Origin: Candidatus Binatia bacterium
GTDB taxonomy: Bacteria; Desulfobacterota; Binatia; UBA9968; JAJDTQ01
Assembly (NCBI GenBank): GCA_963666515.2
Contig: OY762897.2
Location: 3,355,912 to 3,419,911, forward strand
Direction: 5' to 3'
Length of the DNA: 64,000 nucleotides
The number at the start of each line of letters is the position of its first letter. Position 1 is the first letter of the stretch. Below the pieces are notes generated by a model, which was not told the origin of the DNA, ran no database searches, and saw nothing but the letters and a program-made list of their open reading frames with translations. The position numbers and the translations under genes are program-made. Below are positions 15,167 to 60,549 of the stretch, piece after piece.

Positions 15167-15206
15167 TGTGCTGTCCATATCATATGATTGACCCCGGACA
15201 TTGACC

Positions 15207-17507
15207 ATGGACGTCGATCCCATCCGCTACGAGATGTTTCTGCACCGCCTGTGGGCGGTGGGCGAGGAGGGGCGCTCCACCCTCCAGCGCGTCACCGCCT
15301 CGCCCATCGTGGCCCAGGGCGGCGAGGTCATGAGCTCGTTCTACGACGCCGAGGGCAAGATGGTGCTGGCCTGCTCCGGCCACCTGCGGTTCGCCGCCGC
15401 CACCTCGGACGCCATCAAGTACCTCATCGAGTGGTACGGCGAGTCGCCGGGGTTCCACGACGGCGACCAGCTCTTCTTCAACGACCCCTACGTGGCCGGC
15501 TCCCACACCTACGACATGATGGTGATCAAGCCCATCTTCCTGGACGGGCGCCTGATCGCCTGGATCGCCACCAGCACCCACACCGCGGACACCGGCGGGG
15601 TGCTGCGGGGCGCGGCCCTGGAGATCTTCCACGAGGGCATCCGTATCCTGGGGGTCAAGGTGGTGGAGCGGGGCGAGTTCCGCGAGGACGTGTTCCGCAC
15701 CCTCACCGAGCAGTGCCGGGACCCGCAGTACGTGGGGCTTGACATCAAGGCCATGATCGCGGGCAACAACGTGTGCGCTTCCCGCTACCTGAGTCTGGTG
15801 GAGAAGTTCGGCCTGGAGTTCATCGAGGCGGCGGGGGAGAAGACGCTGGCGGACGCCGAGGAGATGGCGCGCGCCAAGCTGCGCTCGCTGCCCGACGGCG
15901 TCTGGCGCTCGCGGGTCTACTACTCCGCGCGCGAGGCCGACCAGTCCGACGCCGACATCATCGCCGTCATCTGCGCCGTCACCAAGAAGGGTGACTCCCT
16001 GGACATCGACCTCGACGGCACCAGCCCCCAGACCTCCGGGGACACCAACTCGACCCTGCCGAGCACGGTGGCGCACCTGAACATCGCGCTCACCAACCAG
16101 CTCTTCTGGGACGTCCCGTGGAACGACGGCAAGCTGGCGCCCATCCGCATGAGGGTGCCCGAAGGCTCGGTGCTGAACTGCACCTTCCCCGCGGCCTGCG
16201 GCTTGGCGCCCATGATCGGCGGCATGTTCGTGGCCGCGGTCAGCGAGTGCCTGGCCAAGATGCTCTATGCCGCCGGACGGAAGGACGACGTAAACGCCGG
16301 CTGGTTCGGCGCCTGGTACTCGGGCGGCCCGGGCTTCATGTACGGCGGCCACAACCGGGAGGGGCTGGCCAACGCCCAGGGGCTCTACGACGTGCACGGC
16401 GGCGGCCTCGGCGCCACCCCGGACCGGGACGGCGTGAACACCGGCGGCCACATGAACATCCCGTCCGGCGGCATCTCCGACATCGAGCGCATCGAGATGC
16501 AGTACCCGTTCATCTACCTGGCGCGCAGGCACGTGAAGGACGGCTCGGGCTTCGGCAAGCATCGCGGCGGCTACGGCAGCGAGCGGCTGCTGTTCGTCTA
16601 CGGCTCCGCCGACGTTTCCGCCAACTACCGCCCCTACGGCGCGGTGCCCAACGGCTTCGGGCTGTTCGGCGGCTATCCCGCGGGCTTCGGCGGCAACCGG
16701 GCGCTTTACCGCACCGAGGGCCTGCTGGAGCGCCTGCGCGAGGGCGCCTACCCCACGGGCGCCGACGAGCTGCAGGGCCTGGACTGGTGCCGGCTGGACC
16801 TGCCCGAGGGCTTCCGGCCGCGGGTGCCGATCCCCGAGATGACCTTCGTCACCGACGTCACCCAGAGCGGCGGCGGGTTCGGCGACCCGCTGGAGCGGGA
16901 CCCCGCGCAGGTGGAGCGTGACGTCCGCACCGGCCGTACCAGCGCCGACGTAGCCGACCGGATCTACGGCGTCAGGCTCGACGGCGACGGCCGGGTGGAC
17001 GCCGCCGCCACCGCGGAGCGGCGGGAGGAACTGCGGGCCGAGCGGCTGGCCCGGGGGTCCCGTCCCGCCGGCGACGCCGGTGACGGCAGCGCCAAGGGCC
17101 TCGCCGGTGCCTCGATTTCCGCAATCGACCCAGGCGCTCCGGCCGTCGCGGCCGGCGCCCGCGCAACCGGCGCGGAGGTCATTCTGCACGTGCACGAGTA
17201 CCTCGATCTGGTCAGGGCCGGAGGCCGCCTCGTGGTGTGCTGCCGCAAGTGCGCCCGCGTGTTCTGCGACGGCGGGGAGAACTACAAGCGCGGCGCCGTC
17301 GAGATCACCATGGACCTGGAAGAAGTGGCCGGCCAGCGCGTCCCCTCCGGCGAGCCCTATCGCGGCGTGCTGCTGGGCTATGTCTGTCCCGGTTGTGCCA
17401 CGCTGCTGCAGGTCGACGTCTTCTGCCCCACCCGCGACGACCAGCGGCCCCTCTGGGACATCCAGCTCGACTGCTCGACGTTCGCGTCGAGTCCCCCCAA
17501 TTTGTGA
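15207..17507 (+). CDS. hydantoinase B/oxoprolinase family protein with a C-terminal acetone-carboxylase-gamma-like Cys4 zinc domain
   Basis: HyuB-type N-terminus (DPIRYEMFLHRL, NDPYVAGSHTYD). The C-terminal roughly 110 aa contain CCRKC...YVCPGCATLLQVDV. Confidence 0.8.
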   Translation: MDVDPIRYEMFLHRLWAVGEEGRSTLQRVTASPIVAQGGEVMSSFYDAEGKMVLACSGHLRFAAATSDAIKYLIEWYGESPGFHDGDQLFFNDPYVAGSHTYDMMVIKPIFLDGRLIAWIATSTHTADTGGVLRGAALEIFHEGIRILGVKVVERGEFREDVFRTLTEQCRDPQYVGLDIKAMIAGNNVCASRYLSLVEKFGLEFIEAAGEKTLADAEEMARAKLRSLPDGVWRSRVYYSAREADQSDADIIAVICAVTKKGDSLDIDLDGTSPQTSGDTNSTLPSTVAHLNIALTNQLFWDVPWNDGKLAPIRMRVPEGSVLNCTFPAACGLAPMIGGMFVAAVSECLAKMLYAAGRKDDVNAGWFGAWYSGGPGFMYGGHNREGLANAQGLYDVHGGGLGATPDRDGVNTGGHMNIPSGGISDIERIEMQYPFIYLARRHVKDGSGFGKHRGGYGSERLLFVYGSADVSANYRPYGAVPNGFGLFGGYPAGFGGNRALYRTEGLLERLREGAYPTGADELQGLDWCRLDLPEGFRPRVPIPEMTFVTDVTQSGGGFGDPLERDPAQVERDVRTGRTSADVADRIYGVRLDGDGRVDAAATAERREELRAERLARGSRPAGDAGDGSAKGLAGASISAIDPGAPAVAAGARATGAEVILHVHEYLDLVRAGGRLVVCCRKCARVFCDGGENYKRGAVEITMDLEEVAGQRVPSGEPYRGVLLGYVCPGCATLLQVDVFCPTRDDQRPLWDIQLDCSTFASSPPNL

Positions 17508-17540
17508 GACAGTTGCGAACTCCGTAAGGGAAACCCATCC

Positions 17541-19133
17541 ATGCACCGAATCATCAGCTCGCTGGCCGGAGCGCTCTTCATCGTCCTGGCCTTCGCCGCG
17601 CCGGTCCAGGCGGAGACGCTGCGGGACACGCTGGTCATGGCCAGGGACCTGGGCGACCTCATCACCCTGGATCCCGCCGAATCGTTCGAGATCTCCACCG
17701 GCGAGATCATCGCCAACATCTACGACCGGATCATGATGTTTGAGCCGGAAGACATGCGCCAGCTTGCCGGCGGCGTGACCGAGAGCCACGAGGTGAGCGG
17801 CGACGGCAAGACCATCACCTTCCGGATACGAGACGGCCTGCGCTTCCATTCCGGCAATCCGGTGCGCCCGGAGGACGTCGAATTCTCCATCGAGCGCGCC
17901 GTGAAGCTGGCCAAGACGCCTGCCTTCATCTTCACCCAGCTCGGCTGGAACGACGACAACGTGGAGGAACTGATCGAAGTGGTGGACGGCCGGCACGTCC
18001 GCATCACCGTCGTCGAGGGGTTCTCCCCGGTGCTGGTGCTGAACACGCTCTCCGCCGGCATCGCCTCGGTGGTCGACAAGGAACTCGTGCTCGCCCACGA
18101 GAAAGACGGCGACCTCGGCAACGGGTGGCTCAGGGCCAACAGCGCCGGCTCCGGCCCGTTCAGGCTGTACCGCTGGAAGGCCGGCGAGACCGTGGTCCTG
18201 GACGCCAATCCCGGCTACCGCCACGGCGCGCCCGGGGTGAACCGCGTCATCCTGCGCCACGTGCCGGAGCCGGCCGCGCAGCGGCGGCTGCTCGAGAACG
18301 GCGACGTCGACATGGCGCGCAACCTCACGCCCGAACTAGTCCGGGAGATCGAGGGCCGCGCGGACCTCGCCGTCGACGGCCATCCCAAGGGCACCATCAT
18401 CTACCTCGCGGCCAACGCGTCACATCCCGTCCTCGGCAAGACCCGGGTCGTGCAGGCGTTGCGTCACGCGGCGGACTACCACGGCATGGCGGATTCGTTC
18501 CTCGCCGGCCAGTTCGTGGTGCACCAGGCGTTCTGGCCGCGTGGCCTGTGGGCGGCCCACACCGGGACGCCATACCGGCTCGACCTGGCCAAGGCGAAGT
18601 CGCTGCTCGCGGCCGCGGGCCATGCCGGCGGTTTCGAGGTGCGCATCGACACGCTCACCAACCCGCCGTTCCCGGAGATCGCCCGGTCGCTGCAGGCCAC
18701 TTTCGCCCAGGTGGGCATCAAGGCTCGAATCGTGACACAGGAGGGCAGGACGCTCTGGCCGAAGTACCGCACGCGCGGGCATGAGCTGATCCTGGCGCCG
18801 TGGTCGCCGGACTACGTGGACCCGCATTCCAACGCGGGGGCCTTTGCGCACAACCCGGACAATCGGGTCGAGGCCAATCTCGCCGGCGTGGTCGCGTGGC
18901 GCAACGCGTGGGCGCGCGACGACATCAACGCAATGGCGGTGGCGGCGCGCGACGAGCGGGACCCGGAGAGGCGCGCGCAACTCTACGTGGACCTCCAGAA
19001 GCGCCTTCAAGTCGAAGGACCGTACGTGATCCTGTTCCAGCAGAACGAACAGGTCGCGCGCCGCACGAACGTCGCGGGCTTCGTCTCCGGTTCGAACTTC
19101 GACCTGGTCTACTACCGCAACGTAACCAAGTAG
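17541..19133 (+). CDS. ABC transporter substrate-binding protein, family 5 (peptide/nickel type)
   Basis: Signal peptide, 530 aa, typical family-5 blocks (VTFRIRDGLRFHSGNPV, WSPDYVDP). No permease or ATPase gene is adjacent. Confidence 0.85.
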   Translation: MHRIISSLAGALFIVLAFAAPVQAETLRDTLVMARDLGDLITLDPAESFEISTGEIIANIYDRIMMFEPEDMRQLAGGVTESHEVSGDGKTITFRIRDGLRFHSGNPVRPEDVEFSIERAVKLAKTPAFIFTQLGWNDDNVEELIEVVDGRHVRITVVEGFSPVLVLNTLSAGIASVVDKELVLAHEKDGDLGNGWLRANSAGSGPFRLYRWKAGETVVLDANPGYRHGAPGVNRVILRHVPEPAAQRRLLENGDVDMARNLTPELVREIEGRADLAVDGHPKGTIIYLAANASHPVLGKTRVVQALRHAADYHGMADSFLAGQFVVHQAFWPRGLWAAHTGTPYRLDLAKAKSLLAAAGHAGGFEVRIDTLTNPPFPEIARSLQATFAQVGIKARIVTQEGRTLWPKYRTRGHELILAPWSPDYVDPHSNAGAFAHNPDNRVEANLAGVVAWRNAWARDDINAMAVAARDERDPERRAQLYVDLQKRLQVEGPYVILFQQNEQVARRTNVAGFVSGSNFDLVYYRNVTK

Positions 19134-29474: not shown

Positions 29475-29738
29475 GCCAGTCCGTTCATGGGTCCTGTCCC
29501 GCAGCCGGTCCGTGGGACCGGGCGCCCTGGGGAATCCCGCGACGCTGCTTCATAGTACCGAAGGCCGCCCGTTAAAACCAGTTTCAAAGGAGGAGGCTTG
29601 CAATTTACCGTTGGGTTGCCCAAGCTCAAGGGTGCAGCTTGCATGGCTCTCTTCTCGCACGGCACCGCCCGATCTGCTAGCATGGCGCGTCACATTAACT
29701 CGCAACCAACCCGGCGACCCGTGGAAAAGGAGCTGCCG

Positions 29739-30344
29739 ATGACCGATCAAGTGACCCTGGAGGTCTTCTCGGATTTCGTCTGACCGTGGTGCTATCTCAG
29801 TACCGGGCGTATTGAGAAACTGCGGCAGAATTATGATCTGAACGTTGTCTACACCCAGTTCCCGTTGCATCCCGATACGCCGCCCGAGGGCAAGGCGCGC
29901 AACATGAGCGGCCCGAGCCGGGTGGACGCCATGCTGGAACGCGAGGGCCTGCCTTTTACCGAGCGCAAGTTCAGCTACAACAGCCGCTCGGCCCAGGAGC
30001 TGGCAAAATGGGCGAAACGCGAGGGGCGGGAAGACGCCTTCAACGACGCGGTGTACCGCGCCTATTTCGTGGAGGCGGCGAACATCGCCGAGCCTGAAGT
30101 CCTGCTCCGGCTGGTGGAAGAGGCGGGGCTGCCGGTGGAGGAGGCGCGCGGGGTGTTGTCGGACCGGACCTTCCAGCAGTCCGTCAATGACGACTGGCAG
30201 CGCTGCTACTCCCTGGGTGTGACGGCCGTTCCCACCTACCTGTCGGAAGGCTTGGCCATCGTCGGCGCCGAGCCCTACGAGCAATTGGAACGGCTTGTCA
30301 CCGAGGCGAGCGCCAAGCGGTCGGCGGAGGCGGCGGACGCCTGA
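29739..30344 (+). CDS. DsbA/FrnE-like thiol oxidoreductase with an in-frame TGA at 29781-29783 replacing the first redox Cys (U-P-W-C); candidate selenoprotein
   Basis: AAGGAG RBS and ATG at 29739. Reads MTDQVTLEVFSDFV-TGA-PWCYLSTGRIEKL and continues in the same frame into ORF 29865..30344 (84 nt = 28 codons further on). Confidence 0.7.
29795..29817 (+). promoter_or_regulatory. candidate bacterial SECIS-like hairpin
   Basis: TCTCAGTA (29795-29802) pairs with TATTGAGA (29810-29817), including one G-U pair, around the G-rich loop CCGGGCG. The stem starts 11 nt after the TGA. Confidence 0.45.
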
Positions 30345-30493
30345 CCGCAATCCACGAGCCGCGATCCCACGCACATCGGGATCGGACCTTGGATTTGCCT
30401 TTACGGTCCTTAACTAACTGGATTGACAGGGAAGTCGTTTGTTCGGATATCGGCGAGTCGGCCGACAACCACGGCCGGTATCGGAGAGTGATC

Positions 30494-34535: not shown

Positions 34536-34660
34536 ACGGTTTCCACCCTTTCCCCTTCCGAAACCCGATCTGCCTGCGACTCCTGCCCTTGACATCGTCT
34601 CCCGTCCGGCGATAATGCCTCACAGGGTCAGACCTTGAACTGTGTCATTCGGGGGGTAAC

Positions 34661-35668
34661 ATGGCACGGCCGCTACGGATCGAATTCCCGCACGCGCACT
34701 ACCACGTCACCTGCCGCGGCAATGACCGGCGGCGGATCTTCGGGGATGACGACGACCGGCATGCCTTCCTGGAAAGGCTGCGCAGGTCGCTGGATATCTA
34801 CGAGGTTAAGCTGCACTGCTACGTGCTGATGAACAACCACTTCCACCTCGTGGCGGATACTCCCAGGGGCAATCTCTCCGAGTTCATGCGGCACTTCAAC
34901 GTAGCCTACACGTCGTATTTCAACCGGCGCCACCGCCGCACGGGCCATCTCTACCAAGGGCGCTTCAAGGCGATCCTGATCCAGCCCGATGCCTGGCTGC
35001 TGGAGTTGAGCCGGTACGTTCACATGAATCCGGTGCGGACGCCCCGGCTCAGGCGGGGCATGGCCCCGGACCAGGTGCGGCAACTGTGGCAGTACCCCTG
35101 GAGCAGCCTGGGCGGATACGTTTCCGTGCGGCGCCGAAAGCCGTGGGTCCACTATGACGAGGTGTTGTCGCGGACAGGTGATTCCCGGCAGCAGTACGGC
35201 CGGTTCGTCCAGGACGGGTTGGAGCAGGGCGTGACGAGTCCGTGGAAGCAAGTGCGCGGGCAGGTGGTCCTGGGCGATGACCGCTTCTGGACCGGCGTCA
35301 GGGAGCAGTGGGCCGGCGCTGCCGGCAGCGCCGCGGTGCGGGAACTCCCGCTGCCCGCGGCAAGGATGGACCCCGCCCGAATCACCGCGGAGGCAGCGAG
35401 GTACTTCAACCTGGCGCCCGAACGGCTTCGGCGCAAGCGGGGCCGCTGCCGGGACCAGCGGGGTGTATTGATGGAGCTGCTGTACCGCCACGGCGGCATG
35501 ACCCAGCAGGCCATCGGCGCCCACCTCGGCGGCCTGGACTACACCGCGGTGAGTCACGAGCGGCGCCGGGCGCGGGAGCGCATGGCGCAGAACGAGGTGA
35601 TGGCAGGGTGGTGGCTCGATCTGGATTCCGCGCTCGGATCCGCTGACCGGCAAAGCGTCAACCGTTAA
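34661..35668 (+). CDS. Y1 (IS200/IS605-type, RAYT-like) transposase-domain protein with a C-terminal DnaA-type HTH
   Basis: HYHVTCRGN, the HUH motif NHFHLV and catalytic-Tyr context GHLYQGRF. The C-terminus (GMTQQAIGAHLGGLDYTAVSH) resembles the DnaA C-terminal HTH. No terminal repeats are seen next to the gene. Confidence 0.7.
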   Translation: MARPLRIEFPHAHYHVTCRGNDRRRIFGDDDDRHAFLERLRRSLDIYEVKLHCYVLMNNHFHLVADTPRGNLSEFMRHFNVAYTSYFNRRHRRTGHLYQGRFKAILIQPDAWLLELSRYVHMNPVRTPRLRRGMAPDQVRQLWQYPWSSLGGYVSVRRRKPWVHYDEVLSRTGDSRQQYGRFVQDGLEQGVTSPWKQVRGQVVLGDDRFWTGVREQWAGAAGSAAVRELPLPAARMDPARITAEAARYFNLAPERLRRKRGRCRDQRGVLMELLYRHGGMTQQAIGAHLGGLDYTAVSHERRRARERMAQNEVMAGWWLDLDSALGSADRQSVNR

Positions 35669-37474: not shown

Positions 37475-37981
37475 CTACCCCCCGGTCGTTTCCACGTAGC
37501 GTCGCAGCACGTAGAGGCCGTCCGGGGTGAAGGGTTCCGTGGCCGCGGCCCGGAACACCGCGTCCACCTCCATGAAGGCGCCGCTCTCCACTTCTTCCTC
37601 CTGGAGGGTCACTTCGCCGTCGTAGACGCACCGGAAGGCCGCGCCCCACACCCGGCTGTTGTCATCCGCGTGGTAGAACTCGAACAGGCTCTGGAGCGGG
37701 ACGTCGCGGATGCCCATTTCTTCCTCGAGCTCCCGCCGGGCGCCATCGAGGTAGCTCTCCCCCGCCAGCACGACGCCGCCGGCCGCGGGATCGTAGTACC
37801 CCGGGAACACGTCCTTGGTGCGCGTGCGCTTCTGTATGTAGATTTCGCTCCCGGAGTTGAACACCAGGATGTAGGTGCTGCGGTGCGGCAGCCTTCGCGC
37901 CCGCATCTCGCGCCGCGGCGCGGAACCGACGACGTTGTTGTCCTCGTCGACGATGGCCACGATCTCGTCGCCCGGGTCCAT
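37475..37981 (-). CDS. NUDIX hydrolase
   Basis: Nudix box GGVVLAGESYLDGARRELEEEMGI. Confidence 0.8.
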   Translation of the reverse strand: MDPGDEIVAIVDEDNNVVGSAPRREMRARRLPHRSTYILVFNSGSEIYIQKRTRTKDVFPGYYDPAAGGVVLAGESYLDGARRELEEEMGIRDVPLQSLFEFYHADDNSRVWGAAFRCVYDGEVTLQEEEVESGAFMEVDAVFRAAATEPFTPDGLYVLRRYVETTGG

Positions 37982-38180
37982 GAGATATGCGGGTTAACGG
38001 CGGCTGGTCAGCTTGTCAACCGTCCACGAGCCCGACCATGTCCTGTCCCAAGTAATTCTTACCGATCTGCTGGTCTTTCTCGTCCGTTCGTCCTGAGCGT
38101 AGCGTAGCGAAGTCGAAGGACGCCTTGCCGACAACAAGAAATCCTGCGCAGCTTGGTAAAGAACTACGTCGGACAGGACA

Positions 38181-43116: not shown

Positions 43117-44022
43117 TCAGGCCACCAGGGCTGACTCCGGGTACTGCTGATAGTAGGCCTGTTCGAGTTCAGCCGGCGGCACATAACCGATTCCTTCCAG
43201 GAGACGGCGGTGGTTGAACCAGTCGACCCACTCAAGGGTGGCGAACTCGACCGCTTCGAGGTGACGCCAGGGGCCGCGTTGGCGAATCACCTCGGTCTTG
43301 TACAAGCCGATGATGGACTCGGCCAAGGCATTGTCGTAGGAATCCCCGACGCGGCCCACCGACGGCTCGATCCCGGCCTCAGCCAGACGCTCGCTGTAGC
43401 GGATCGACAGGTACTGGGCGCCACGGTCGCTGTGATGCACCAGAGCGTCCTGATGGCCCACCGCACGGTCATAGAGCGCCTGCTCAAGGGCGTCCAGGGC
43501 AAGGTCTGTGTGCAACGAGTCCGAGACGCGCCAGCCCACGATGCGCCGCGCATAGGCATCGACGACAAAGGCGACGTAGACGAAGCCACGCCAGGTAGCC
43601 ACGTAGATCAGGTCCGCCACCCACAGCGCATTCGGCCGGCTAGCCTCGAACGCCCGGTTCACTCGGTCCGCGCGCCGGGCGAGCGCTTTCACTGCCATGG
43701 TCGTCTTCGACCGCCGACCCCGAACCACGCCACGAAGTCCCATCTCTCCCATCAGCCGCGCCACCGTGCAGCGGGCCACCGCAAGGCCCTCCCGTTGAGC
43801 GCACGCCACACCTTGCGCACCCCGTACACCCCGAAGTTCTCCCCCCTCCCACCCGCTTGATCTCGCCCCGCAGTTCCGCGTCACGTCGCGTTCGCGCCGG
43901 CAAGGAGCACGACCGGCCTCTCGCGCCTTGCTTTCGTAGTAGGTCGAGGGGGCGATCGGCAACTCCCTGCAGATCGGCTCGACCCCGTATGCCCCTCGGT
44001 GCGCGTCGATGAACGACACCAT
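43117..44022 (-). pseudogene. IS3 OrfB (DDE transposase) with internal compensating frame disruptions
   Basis: Conserved blocks sit in three different frames within about 130 bp. [18 protein letters not shown]...KAREA (frame 1), [17 protein letters not shown] (frame 2), ENFGVYGVRKVWRALN (frame 3), then REGLAVARCTVARLM back in frame 1. The DDE core (HSDRGAQY, DNALAES) is intact. Confidence 0.7.
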
Positions 44023-44342
44023 TGCGTCCCGCGGCGGTCGAGCTCCGCCTGGGCGAAAAAAGCCGCCGCCTTGCGCAATATCTCGTTCGCACGACGTAGC
44101 TCCCGGTTCTCTCGTTCCAGCGCCCTCAGCCGCTCTCCCCCTTCGCTCTTCTGCCCCGGCCCCTCACCCGCTTCGCCCTCCGCCCGCCGCACCCACTTGC
44201 GCAACGTCTCCGCGGTGCAGCCAAGCTTCGACGCCACCGACACGATCGCCGCCCACTGCGATCCGTATCCCGCCTCGTGCTCCAACACCATCCGAACCGC
44301 CCTCTCCCGGACCTCCGGTGAATACCTCGTCGACTTGTTCAT
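43881..44342 (-). CDS. IS3 OrfA (HTH transposase subunit)
   Basis: [19 protein letters not shown]...[30 protein letters not shown]. The slippery TTTTTTC lies at about 44049-44055 on the plus strand (read there as GAAAAAA). Confidence 0.8.
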
Positions 44343-48188: not shown

Positions 48189-48719
48189 ATGCTATACACC
48201 ACCCACCGTCGAAGGCTGTCACGGGACCGGGGAAAAACAGTGGCGAAGGGATCGAAGCGCGTGCTTCCGAAGGTGTTCGTGGACAAGTCCGCGATTCACG
48301 GGGAGGGGCTGTATGCGGGCGAAAGGATCCGCAAGGGCCGGCGCATCATCGAGTACAAGGGCGAGAGGGTCCCTTCTGGCGAAGGCACCACACGGTCCAG
48401 GGACGACGAGGAGCTGACCTACATCTTCACCCTGAACGACAAGTACGACGTGGACGGCTCCGTGAACGGCAACGAGGCGCGGTTCGCCAACCATTCCTGC
48501 GACGGCAACGCCTGGGTGGACATCATCCGCAACCGCATCTGGTTCATCGCCGAACGCAGCATCGCCGAAGGAGAGGAGATCACCATCGACTACCGGCTCC
48601 AGGCGGAAGAGCTGTATGAATGCGTTTGCGGCGCCGAGCAATGCCGGGGGTACATGAACGACGCCGACGACGAGTTGATGAAGAAGGTCAGGACCCGGCG
48701 CAATAAGCGCCTGGCGTGA
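48189..48719 (+). CDS. SET-domain protein (putative protein-lysine methyltransferase)
   Basis: GEGLYAG...IIEYKGE...RFANHSCDGN...EEITIDY plus the post-SET C-x-C-x4-C (CVCGAEQC). The start is uncertain (ATG 48189 or GTG 48240). Confidence 0.8.
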   Translation: MLYTTHRRRLSRDRGKTVAKGSKRVLPKVFVDKSAIHGEGLYAGERIRKGRRIIEYKGERVPSGEGTTRSRDDEELTYIFTLNDKYDVDGSVNGNEARFANHSCDGNAWVDIIRNRIWFIAERSIAEGEEITIDYRLQAEELYECVCGAEQCRGYMNDADDELMKKVRTRRNKRLA

Positions 48720-48755
48720 CGCCGCCCGGTTCCCGGTGGCGGTGGCTGCTTTTCC

Positions 48756-50324
48756 ATGTCTGCCTCCCATCCGTTCAACGAGCGCGACTTGGCGCAACTC
48801 CGAGCCCGCGGCATCTCCGCGGAACGCGCCGCGGACTGTCTGGACACTTTCGCCGCGGGCGTGCCCCACGCGGTGCTGGACCGGCCCTGCACCAGGGGCG
48901 ACGGCATTACGGTGCTGGAGGACGCGGAGGTAGACCGCCTGTGCCGCCGCGGCGAGGAGGCGGCGCGGGAAGGAAGGCTCACGAAGTTCGTTCCCGCGTC
49001 GGGAGCGGCGAGCCGCATGTTCCAGGCGCTGCTGGCGGCCCGGGGCCGGACCGGGGATGCGCCGGCGACCGTGGAGGACCTTCGCGATGCGCCGGAATAC
49101 CCGGTGCTGCGGGAGTTCCTGGCGCGCCTCGGCCGCTTCCCGTTCTATCCGCAACTGGAGGCGGCGATGGCGCGGCGCGGCGAGGAGCTTCCGCCGCTGC
49201 GCGAAGCCGGCCGCTTCCGTGAGATCCTGGACTGCCTCCTCGACCCCGGCGCAATGGGCTATGCCGCGCTTCCCAAGGGTCTGGTCCCGTTTCATCGCTA
49301 CGCCGACGACTGCCGCACGCCCGTGGCCGAACACCTGCTGGAGGCCCGCAGGTACGTCCGGGACCGGACCGGGATGGTGCGCCTTCACTTCACGGTCTCT
49401 CCCGAGCACTGGGGCGAGGTGGAGGACCACGTCGCGGCCATGTGCCGGCTCTACCAGGAGCGCAACACCTCCTTCGACGTGACCCTTTCGGTGCAGCGCC
49501 CCGACACCGACACGCTGGCCGCGACCCTCGACAACCAGCCGTTCCGCGAACCGGACGGAAGCCTTTCGCTCCGGCCCGGCGGCCATGGCGCCCTCCTGGC
49601 GAACCTCAATGACCTCGCGCCGGACGTTGTGTTCATCCAGAACGTCGACAACGTCGCCGTCCATGCCGCCACCGCGGTCCGCTACCGGAAGGCGCTGGCA
49701 GGCTTGCTGGTGGAGCTGCAGGCACGGGTGTTCCACTACCTCGACGGCCTTGATGCCGACCCGTCGCCGCCGCTGTTGGACGAGGTGTCGCGGTTCGCCC
49801 GGGACCTGTTGTCCGCGGCGCCCCCGGAAGGCCTCGCGGGCGCGCCCGCGGCCGAACGCGCCGGCTTCCTGCGCGAGACCCTCGACCGTCCGCTGCGCGT
49901 TTGCGGCATGGTGCCGTCCGCCGGCGAGCCGGGCGGCGGTCCCTTCTGGGTGCGGGACGCCCACGGAAGGTGCTCGCTCCAGATCGTCGAGTCTTCGCAG
50001 GTGGACATGGAGGAGCCTCGCCAGCGCGACGTCTTCGCCGCGTCCAGCCACTTCAATCCGGTGGACATGGTGTGCGGTGTCCGCCGGGCCTCGGGAGCGT
50101 GCTTCGATCTCATGGACTTCCGCGACCCGCGGGCCGCGTTCATCGCCGTCAAGTCCAGCCGCGGAAGCCGGCTCAAGACCCTGGAGCACCCCGGCCTGTG
50201 GAACGGCGGCATGGCGCGCTGGAACACGGTGTTCGTCGAGATGCCCGCCCAGACCTTCGCGCCGGTGAAGACCGTGCTCGACCTGTTGCGGCCCGAGCAC
50301 CAGCCCCGCCGCACATTGAAATAG
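48756..50324 (+). CDS. DUF4301-family protein (nucleotidyltransferase-like fold)
   Basis: KFVPASGAASRMF and RPGGHGAL blocks as I recall them for DUF4301. 522 aa. Confidence 0.65.
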   Translation: MSASHPFNERDLAQLRARGISAERAADCLDTFAAGVPHAVLDRPCTRGDGITVLEDAEVDRLCRRGEEAAREGRLTKFVPASGAASRMFQALLAARGRTGDAPATVEDLRDAPEYPVLREFLARLGRFPFYPQLEAAMARRGEELPPLREAGRFREILDCLLDPGAMGYAALPKGLVPFHRYADDCRTPVAEHLLEARRYVRDRTGMVRLHFTVSPEHWGEVEDHVAAMCRLYQERNTSFDVTLSVQRPDTDTLAATLDNQPFREPDGSLSLRPGGHGALLANLNDLAPDVVFIQNVDNVAVHAATAVRYRKALAGLLVELQARVFHYLDGLDADPSPPLLDEVSRFARDLLSAAPPEGLAGAPAAERAGFLRETLDRPLRVCGMVPSAGEPGGGPFWVRDAHGRCSLQIVESSQVDMEEPRQRDVFAASSHFNPVDMVCGVRRASGACFDLMDFRDPRAAFIAVKSSRGSRLKTLEHPGLWNGGMARWNTVFVEMPAQTFAPVKTVLDLLRPEHQPRRTLK

Positions 50325-51940: not shown

Positions 51941-52240
51941 ATGGTTACCAAGGAACAGATATATGAGGCCTTGCAGGACTGCTACGACCCCGAGATCCCG
52001 GTGAACATCGTGGACCTCGGTCTGGTGTACGACGTCGAGGTCGAGGACGACACCGTGGCGGTGAAGATGACCCTGACCACACCGGGATGCGGCATGGGCG
52101 GCATGATCGCCTCCAACGCCCAGTCCCTGATCATGGAGATCCCCGGCGTCAAGGACGCCAACGTGGACCTCGTGTGGGATCCGCCCTGGGATCCCAGCCG
52201 GATCAGCGAGGAAGCGCGGCAGAAGCTCGGAATTGGCTAA
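51941..52240 (+). CDS. DUF59/SufT-like metal-sulfur cluster assembly factor
   Basis: CYDPEIPVNIVDLGLVY...LTTPGCGMG. Confidence 0.8.
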   Translation: MVTKEQIYEALQDCYDPEIPVNIVDLGLVYDVEVEDDTVAVKMTLTTPGCGMGGMIASNAQSLIMEIPGVKDANVDLVWDPPWDPSRISEEARQKLGIG

Positions 52241-52286
52241 GCCGGGGATCGCCGCTGGCCATCCCTCATCCCGACCCCTACCCACC

Positions 52287-57953
<5,667 letters not shown>

Positions 57954-59447: not shown

Positions 59448-60549
<1,102 letters not shown>

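Follow-up and report, generated by a model that had tools for sequence, protein, structure and literature searches.

A candidate selenocysteine codon at the active site of a DsbA/FrnE-like oxidoreductase gene from Binatia

Does the TGA that interrupts a DsbA/FrnE-like reading frame at positions 29739-30344 end translation, or is it read as an amino acid? The frame lies in a 64-kb stretch of Binatia DNA, the whole of which was analyzed here and is called the window. A sequence-only reading of this stretch had noted that the TGA falls where related proteins carry the first cysteine of C-P-W-C, and it had proposed a selenoprotein gene that standard ORF tracks would split. The features on which our answer depends are collected in Table 1.

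Table 1. Positions of the features discussed in the text (window coordinates unless a contig is named)
Feature	Position	Strand	Basis or remark
Shine-Dalgarno sequence AAGGAG	29727..29732	+	read directly
Full coding sequence of the candidate DsbA/FrnE-like selenoprotein, 201 residues including Sec15	29739..30344	+	translation, Pfam, GC3
In-frame TGA, codon 15, inferred Sec (U15), first residue of U-P-W-C	29781..29783	+	
TGC, Cys18, second (putatively resolving) residue of UxxC	29790..29792	+	
29-nt block, invariant at every position in 20 Binatia orthologues	29793..29821	+	
SECIS-like hairpin, 23 nt	29795..29817	+	stem 29795-29803 with 29809-29817, loop CGGGC 29804-29808
CCC, Pro165 of the A-V-P motif	30231..30233	+	aligned to G-V-P of SCO1869/FrnE
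Y1_Tnp/DnaA-HTH protein and NUDIX hydrolase pair	34616-35668; 37475-37993	+; -	same pair at L082 1863-3499 and L083 3065-4681
selB-tRNA-Sec (plus selA on L162) beside Sec-DsbA	L183 43-2004; L162 5381-8588; L180 3-1397		

The reading frame and its product

The start of the frame can be read directly: an ATG (29739-29741, plus strand) stands 6 nt downstream of AAGGAG, and GGAAAGGAG followed by ATG was kept in all 19 Binatia orthologues. The good ribosome-binding site and start codon that had been proposed are thus borne out. After the TGA at codon 15, the next in-frame stop is the TGA at 30342-30344, and the coordinates given earlier for the in-frame TGA and for the open frame that follows it were correct. 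The selenoprotein frame has a GC3 of 0.84, like the real genes of the window (~67% GC); an antisense ORF at 29550..30374 failed the coding-composition (GC3/GC2) filter.

For this gene, a mechanical ORF list recorded only 29865..30344 (TTG start, 159 aa), which is the split that had been suspected. The same is true of databases, where the prediction that gene callers would cut the gene also held. The window gene has been deposited in an ENA assembly as an exact 146-aa fragment. Of the proteins in databases, each of the 50 nearest to it (62-93% identity) was called without its N terminus; their lengths are 133-179 aa and their start points disagree. Cys forms of full length appeared in the protein database only at 51% identity or less to the window protein.

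With U read as C, the product matched the Pfam DSBA family (PF01323) with E = 2.8e-33 and 115.8 bits (cut-off 25.6), its residues 6-185 spanning profile positions 1-188 of 191. The closest PDB sequences were SCO1869 (3gl5) and D. radiodurans FrnE (5cnw, 5cp1), which aligned over the full length at E ~1e-18. In residue-by-residue alignments at the TGA column, made with two chains (3gl5 and 5cp1), F-S-D-F-V-U-P-W-C-Y was aligned to S-D-I-A-C-P-W-C-Y, with the TGA column falling on the first Cys of CPWC. We take Pro165 to belong to the cis-proline loop of DsbA-family proteins. Alignment to solved structures points to a thioredoxin-type fold with an inserted helical domain. As we read the sequence, the N terminus enters strand beta-1 directly and has no hydrophobic leader or signal peptide; because of this, the window protein, like FrnE, should be cytoplasmic.

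Perhaps translation does end at the TGA, and the 14-residue leader and the hairpin form an attenuator-like element regulating a shorter DsbA-domain protein, one begun at an internal TTG or ATG and lacking the redox motif? Such internal starts exist (TTG 29865 and ATG 29904), and annotation pipelines use them. However, the starts that are chosen vary among orthologues, giving proteins of anywhere from 133 to 179 aa, and from the TGA as far as these starts the frame is open and protein-conserved in all homologues. ATG 29739 is preceded by a strong, conserved ribosome-binding site. The sequence-only reading had objected that a truncation or a downstream TTG start would discard the redox motif, and the objection stands: the discarded part is strand beta-1 and the whole catalytic motif, a segment that aligns to solved structures. 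We consider it very improbable that the TGA closes a leader peptide.

Conservation of the TGA codon and of the hairpin

A scan of the genome collection recovered the gene from 19 Binatia genomes at species level, both MAGs and chromosomes, with 81-93% identity; complete chromosomes that carry it include OZ220712.1, OY761465.1, OX638375.1, OZ244617.1 and OZ241976.1. All 19 orthologues have the ATG, the ribosome-binding site and the same hairpin, and codon 15 is TGA in each. TGA and hairpin were likewise present in a SAR324 homologue (48% identity) and in three metagenome homologues (L081-L083, 62-66% identity), the loop being CGUGC in these three. The Cys-type homologues L021-L030 have TGC or TGT at the TGA column, and the codon for Cys18 is TGC or TGT in every homologue compared. 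The claim that the TGA occupies the place of the first Cys of C-P-W-C therefore holds among these homologues as it does for SCO1869 and FrnE, whose aligned chains both read CPWC.

Upstream of the TGA, codons 2-14 varied mostly at third positions among the window gene and its 19 Binatia orthologues. Hence, the upstream peptide is translated in this frame. Conservation of the N-terminal segment had been singled out as a point to check, and the peptide before the TGA is indeed conserved, with mostly synonymous variation.

Metagenomes were searched with an amino-acid-level pattern (TGH CCN TGG TGY TAY YTN WSN ACN GKN MGN ATH GAR) that permitted TGA, TGC or TGT at the Sec column. At least 120 contigs matched, and among the matches listed the column held TGA in 120 of 120 and TGC or TGT in none. 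The proteins of these 120 contigs are mostly just 41-56% identical to the window protein. TGA is thus found at the same codon in at least 143 independent loci (19 Binatia, SAR324, L081-L083 and at least 120 metagenome contigs). Among the matches listed, the peptide Y-(L/F)-S-T-(G/V)-R-I-E occurred in Sec forms only, as expected if the RNA element dictates the peptide.

These counts bear on whether a TGC or TGT was turned into TGA by faulty sequencing or assembly, or whether the TGA marks a nonsense-mutated pseudogene. Gene callers do treat the gene as truncated, and a 146-aa product stands in an ENA assembly. However, the same codon is TGA in all of the at least 143 independent loci, which come from varied assemblies and technologies and from complete chromosomes too; neither Cys codon turned up in the 120 metagenome matches listed; and purifying selection is evident on both sides of the TGA. 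The chance of an error or a pseudogene is next to negligible, and sequencing error, which the sequence-only reading had named as a way to be wrong, is excluded by the recurrence of the TGA in at least 143 independent assemblies.

In an NJ tree of Sec and Cys forms, the Binatia sequences and L081-L083 formed a cluster, and the SAR324 Sec form shifted between runs. Local synteny is conserved as well: a protein with Y1_Tnp (IS200-like) and DnaA C-terminal HTH domains and a NUDIX hydrolase are encoded near the Sec-DsbA gene of the window, and the same pair lies near the DsbA gene in L082 and L083, where the DsbA proteins are 62-66% identical.

The hairpin begins 11 nt past the TGA, at the position and distance first described; its stem, described as 8 bp, is 9 bp long, with eight Watson-Crick pairs and one G-U pair. 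The conserved core, 29797-29815, consists of a 7-bp stem and the loop. Folded alone, the hairpin has a minimum free energy (MFE) of -9.4 kcal/mol; its 60-nt context has -19.1 kcal/mol, with z = -2.3. The published consensus for bacterial SECIS elements (bSECIS) calls for an apical loop of 3-9 nt, an upper stem of 4-16 bp, a G within the first two loop positions that is usually followed by G or U, a UGA-to-loop distance of 16-37 nt and an MFE of -7.5 kcal/mol or lower (PMC13188914). Here, the loop has 5 nt and opens with C-G-G (G-U in other clades), the stem has 9 bp and the loop lies 20 nt from the UGA, so that with its MFE the hairpin falls within all five published limits. Its spacing had been described as that of a bacterial SECIS, and the UGA-to-loop distance agrees with this description (PMC13188914). 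Rfam gave no family for the hairpin at E values up to 10.

Is the hairpin itself under selection, apart from the peptide that it encodes? Of the first 570 nt of the gene, 60% is invariant across the window copy and its 19 Binatia orthologues, and the block at 29793-29821, which spans the hairpin, is the only stretch of the gene in which 12 or more consecutive nucleotides never change. When only codons with a conserved amino acid were considered, synonymous variation was seen in 2 of 12 codons at positions 16-28 versus 82 of 103 elsewhere (Fisher p = 2.6e-5, an indicative value, since the sequences are related).

Pairing in the stem was surveyed in 88 distinct 42-nt segments from at least 143 loci. 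The seven upper pairs were formed in 95-100% of these sequences and the two lowest pairs in just 49-62%. Three third-codon positions in the stem had been left free by the search pattern, and all three held the pairing base in 88 of 88 sequences. The loop was CGGGC, CGUGC or a close relative throughout. One upper-stem pair showed a compensatory change from A-U to U-A in three sequences. Formal covariation is weak because five of the nine pairs are invariant, and the two at the base are often unpaired; support for the hairpin comes from conservation, not from compensatory change. Mean stability was -7.9 kcal/mol in Sec forms versus -6.8 kcal/mol in Cys forms, a difference so small that hairpin stability alone does not discriminate between them.

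A single copy of the 19-nt core is present in the window, where 0.01 occurrences are expected by chance. In 1.55 Mb of collected DNA, 144 of 146 matches to the core (with up to 3 mismatches) lay directly after TGA-CCN-TGG-TGY-TAY, and the remaining two had three mismatches each. The near-invariant core UCAGUAC-CGKGC-GUAUUGA can serve as a search probe for this selenoprotein family.

UGA decoding and the selenocysteine machinery

If the TGA is decoded, must the amino acid be Sec? UGA could be read through without Sec, by near-cognate tRNA-Trp or tRNA-Cys, by a lineage-specific reassignment or with Cys carried on tRNA-Sec. One form of this idea, a global reassignment of UGA, can be judged from the window itself. 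The gene for release factor RF2, prfB, lies at 59451-60549 on the minus strand (TIGR00020, 530 bits versus a cut-off of 370). From its ATG at 60549, the frame runs into an in-frame TGA (60480-60478, minus strand) within CTT TGA C, and by sequence reading this is the classical autoregulatory +1 frameshift site GGAGG...CTT TGA C (CUU-UGA-C, 60483-60477, minus strand). Moreover, 16 of 42 coding-like segments, the selenoprotein gene included, end in TGA. Since RF2 has a UGA-dependent shift site and so many segments end in TGA, we conclude that global reassignment of UGA in this genome is excluded. With the programmed +1 frameshift in prfB, the window has a second case of recoding that depends on UGA.

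We looked for the Sec machinery in the window and around the homologues. Neither the 64-kb window nor ~240 kb of DNA flanking the Binatia orthologues yielded selA, selB, selD or tRNA-Sec. ARAGORN detected no tRNA in the window and no tRNA-Sec in L001-L020; Pfam scans of 40 coding-like window segments gave no SelA, SelB or SelD domain and no second selenoprotein; and tblastn with approximate E. coli SelA, SelB and SelD queries had no match in the window or the Binatia loci. Among metagenome contigs, the same tblastn queries hit L162, L180 and L183 only, which are three of the 51 contigs with at least 3.5 kb of flank.

On each of these three contigs, a homologous Sec-DsbA gene stands beside Sec machinery genes. 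The three Sec-DsbA proteins share 74-80% identity among themselves and 45-49% with the window protein. A tRNA-Sec with anticodon TCA is present on all three contigs. The selB gene (TIGR00475) scored 364 bits on L162 and 439 bits on L183; on L180 it is cut by the contig end and scored 157 bits, below the 242-bit cut-off. A selA gene was found on L162 only (TIGR00474, 566 bits). A protein search with the SelB of L183 returned Burkholderiales/Betaproteobacteria-like proteins and none from Binatia. On L183, the selB ORF (43-1956) is overlapped at its 3' end by the gene for tRNA-Sec (1909-2004); such a selC-in-selB arrangement has been cited for some Proteobacteria (PMC13188914).

The lack of Sec machinery in the window and the Binatia flanks is what read-through without Sec would lead one to expect, and Cys at the TGA column of homologues would suit the insertion of Cys. 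However, UGA is a normal stop here, as prfB and the 16 of 42 segments attest. The codon is followed by a hairpin that agrees with the SelB-type SECIS model and is conserved at synonymous sites, homologues adjoin selA-selB-tRNA-Sec, and UxxC DsbA-like proteins are an accepted selenoprotein family. We therefore regard decoding of the TGA by anything other than Sec as improbable. We conclude, with a probability of about 0.88, that the region 29739-30344 is one gene, for a DsbA/FrnE-like thiol-disulfide oxidoreductase with Sec at the N-terminal active-site position, in the motif U15-P-W-C18.

How would such a gene be expressed? By analogy with the known Sec pathway of bacteria, the hairpin 11 nt past the UGA would act as a bacterial SECIS and would bind SelB-GTP-Sec-tRNA(Sec), so that Sec could be delivered to the UGA in competition with RF2; translation would then run on to the ordinary TGA stop at 30342. 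From what holds for the thioredoxin-fold family, Sec15 would be the attacking nucleophile on substrate disulfides, and Cys18 would resolve the selenenyl-sulfide intermediate. SelB binding, selenium incorporation and the catalytic role are steps that we infer from these precedents.

The window was also scanned for other in-frame TGA codons, using GC3. The scan, which is insensitive to N-terminal Sec codons and missed the TGA at 29781 itself, yielded only overlaps, antisense artefacts and a trivial TGA bounding prfB (60522-60524). Two pairs of same-frame ORFs, each parted by just a TGA and a short gap, were considered as read-through and rejected on their domain content: the pair 15192/17508 belongs to separate Hydantoinase_B and SBP_bac_5 genes (15192-19133, plus strand), and the pair 48189/48720 belongs to separate SET and DUF4301 genes (48189-50324, plus strand).

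Two further observations concern the rest of the window. An ALIL pseudoknot (Rfam RF01497, 107 bits) lies at 43948-44064 on the minus strand, between the overlapping minus-strand ORFs 43881-44342 and 43117-44022. The pseudoknot and the overlapping ORFs suggest an insertion sequence of the IS3 family with a -1 frameshift signal. It is located in an island of lower GC content (57-62% GC, ~40-46 kb), where Fic and DUF4238 genes lie as well. Farther along, the plus-strand ORF 52131-57953 (~1,900-1,940 codons) contains two sets of UvrA DNA-binding/interaction domains, along with several stretches of ABC ATPase. With roughly double the normal length of UvrA, its product resembles two UvrA-like proteins that have been fused or arose by tandem duplication.

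Significance and relation to known systems

Correct annotation of this gene restores a redox enzyme whose 50 closest database entries, some of them from complete NCBI and ENA genomes, are without the catalytic motif. The gene also implies that UGA is decoded as selenocysteine in Binatia, an uncultured class. In the literature searched, no paper links Binatia or Binatota with selenocysteine. What is new here is the host lineage, Binatia, and the near-invariance of the SECIS core across phyla is put on record as well; both the DsbA-like UxxC family and the mechanism are already established, and knowledge of selenoproteins in general is unchanged.

The 19-nt SECIS core and the peptide Y-L-S-T-(G/V)-R-I-E that goes with it are near-identical in Binatia, SAR324 and Burkholderiales-like contigs, whose proteins are 45-50% identical. 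Might the Sec FrnE-like gene have passed from phylum to phylum as a self-contained recoding cassette, with a product tied to the Sec machinery? The product may have such a tie, for example as a selenium-handling or redox partner of that machinery, because the gene stands beside selA-selB-tRNA-Sec in 3 of 51 contigs. We offer the cassette and its tie as a speculation, and a rather unlikely one.

Among proteins of solved structure, FrnE (5CNW, 5CP1) and SCO1869 (3GL5) can be aligned to the window protein over the full length, with CPWC on UPWC. The V-P (cis-Pro) loop is kept, and a signal peptide is absent in all. They differ at the first active-site position, which is Cys in FrnE and SCO1869 and, as we read it, Sec in the window protein. 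They are also longer, at 239-260 aa versus 201 aa. FrnE carries a C-terminal tail with an extra CxxxxC motif, and the window protein is without this tail.

The SECIS elements of E. coli fdhF and fdnG are the paradigm of the bacterial selenocysteine insertion sequence. Like them, the predicted element of the window is a hairpin within the coding region, immediately 3' of the UGA, with an apical stem-loop from 11 nt after the UGA and a small loop in which G is followed by G or U. Unlike them, it has no bulged U, and its primary sequence is unrelated.

The closest known system is the DsbA-like selenoprotein family itself. Zhang, Fomenko and Gladyshev first described DsbA-like UxxC selenoproteins (COG2761, FrnE group) in 2005, in the Sargasso Sea metagenome, with nine sequences, each of which had a predicted SECIS with G in the loop (PMC1088965). 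The statement in the sequence-only reading that replacement of Cys by Sec is established for DsbA/FrnE-like families is therefore correct, COG2761 having been known as such a family since that study (PMC1088965). A 2026 review lists the family as "DsbA-like protein form 1, PF01323, UxxC" (PMC13188914). The window gene shares with it the Pfam domain and the UxxC motif with Sec for the first Cys, a SECIS-like hairpin after the UGA with a small G-containing loop, and widespread Cys homologues. The match rests on these defining features rather than on alignment to AACY01178397 or NIP15863.1. All the features that define the DsbA-like UxxC family and could be tested are present in the window gene, whose host is a member of Binatia.
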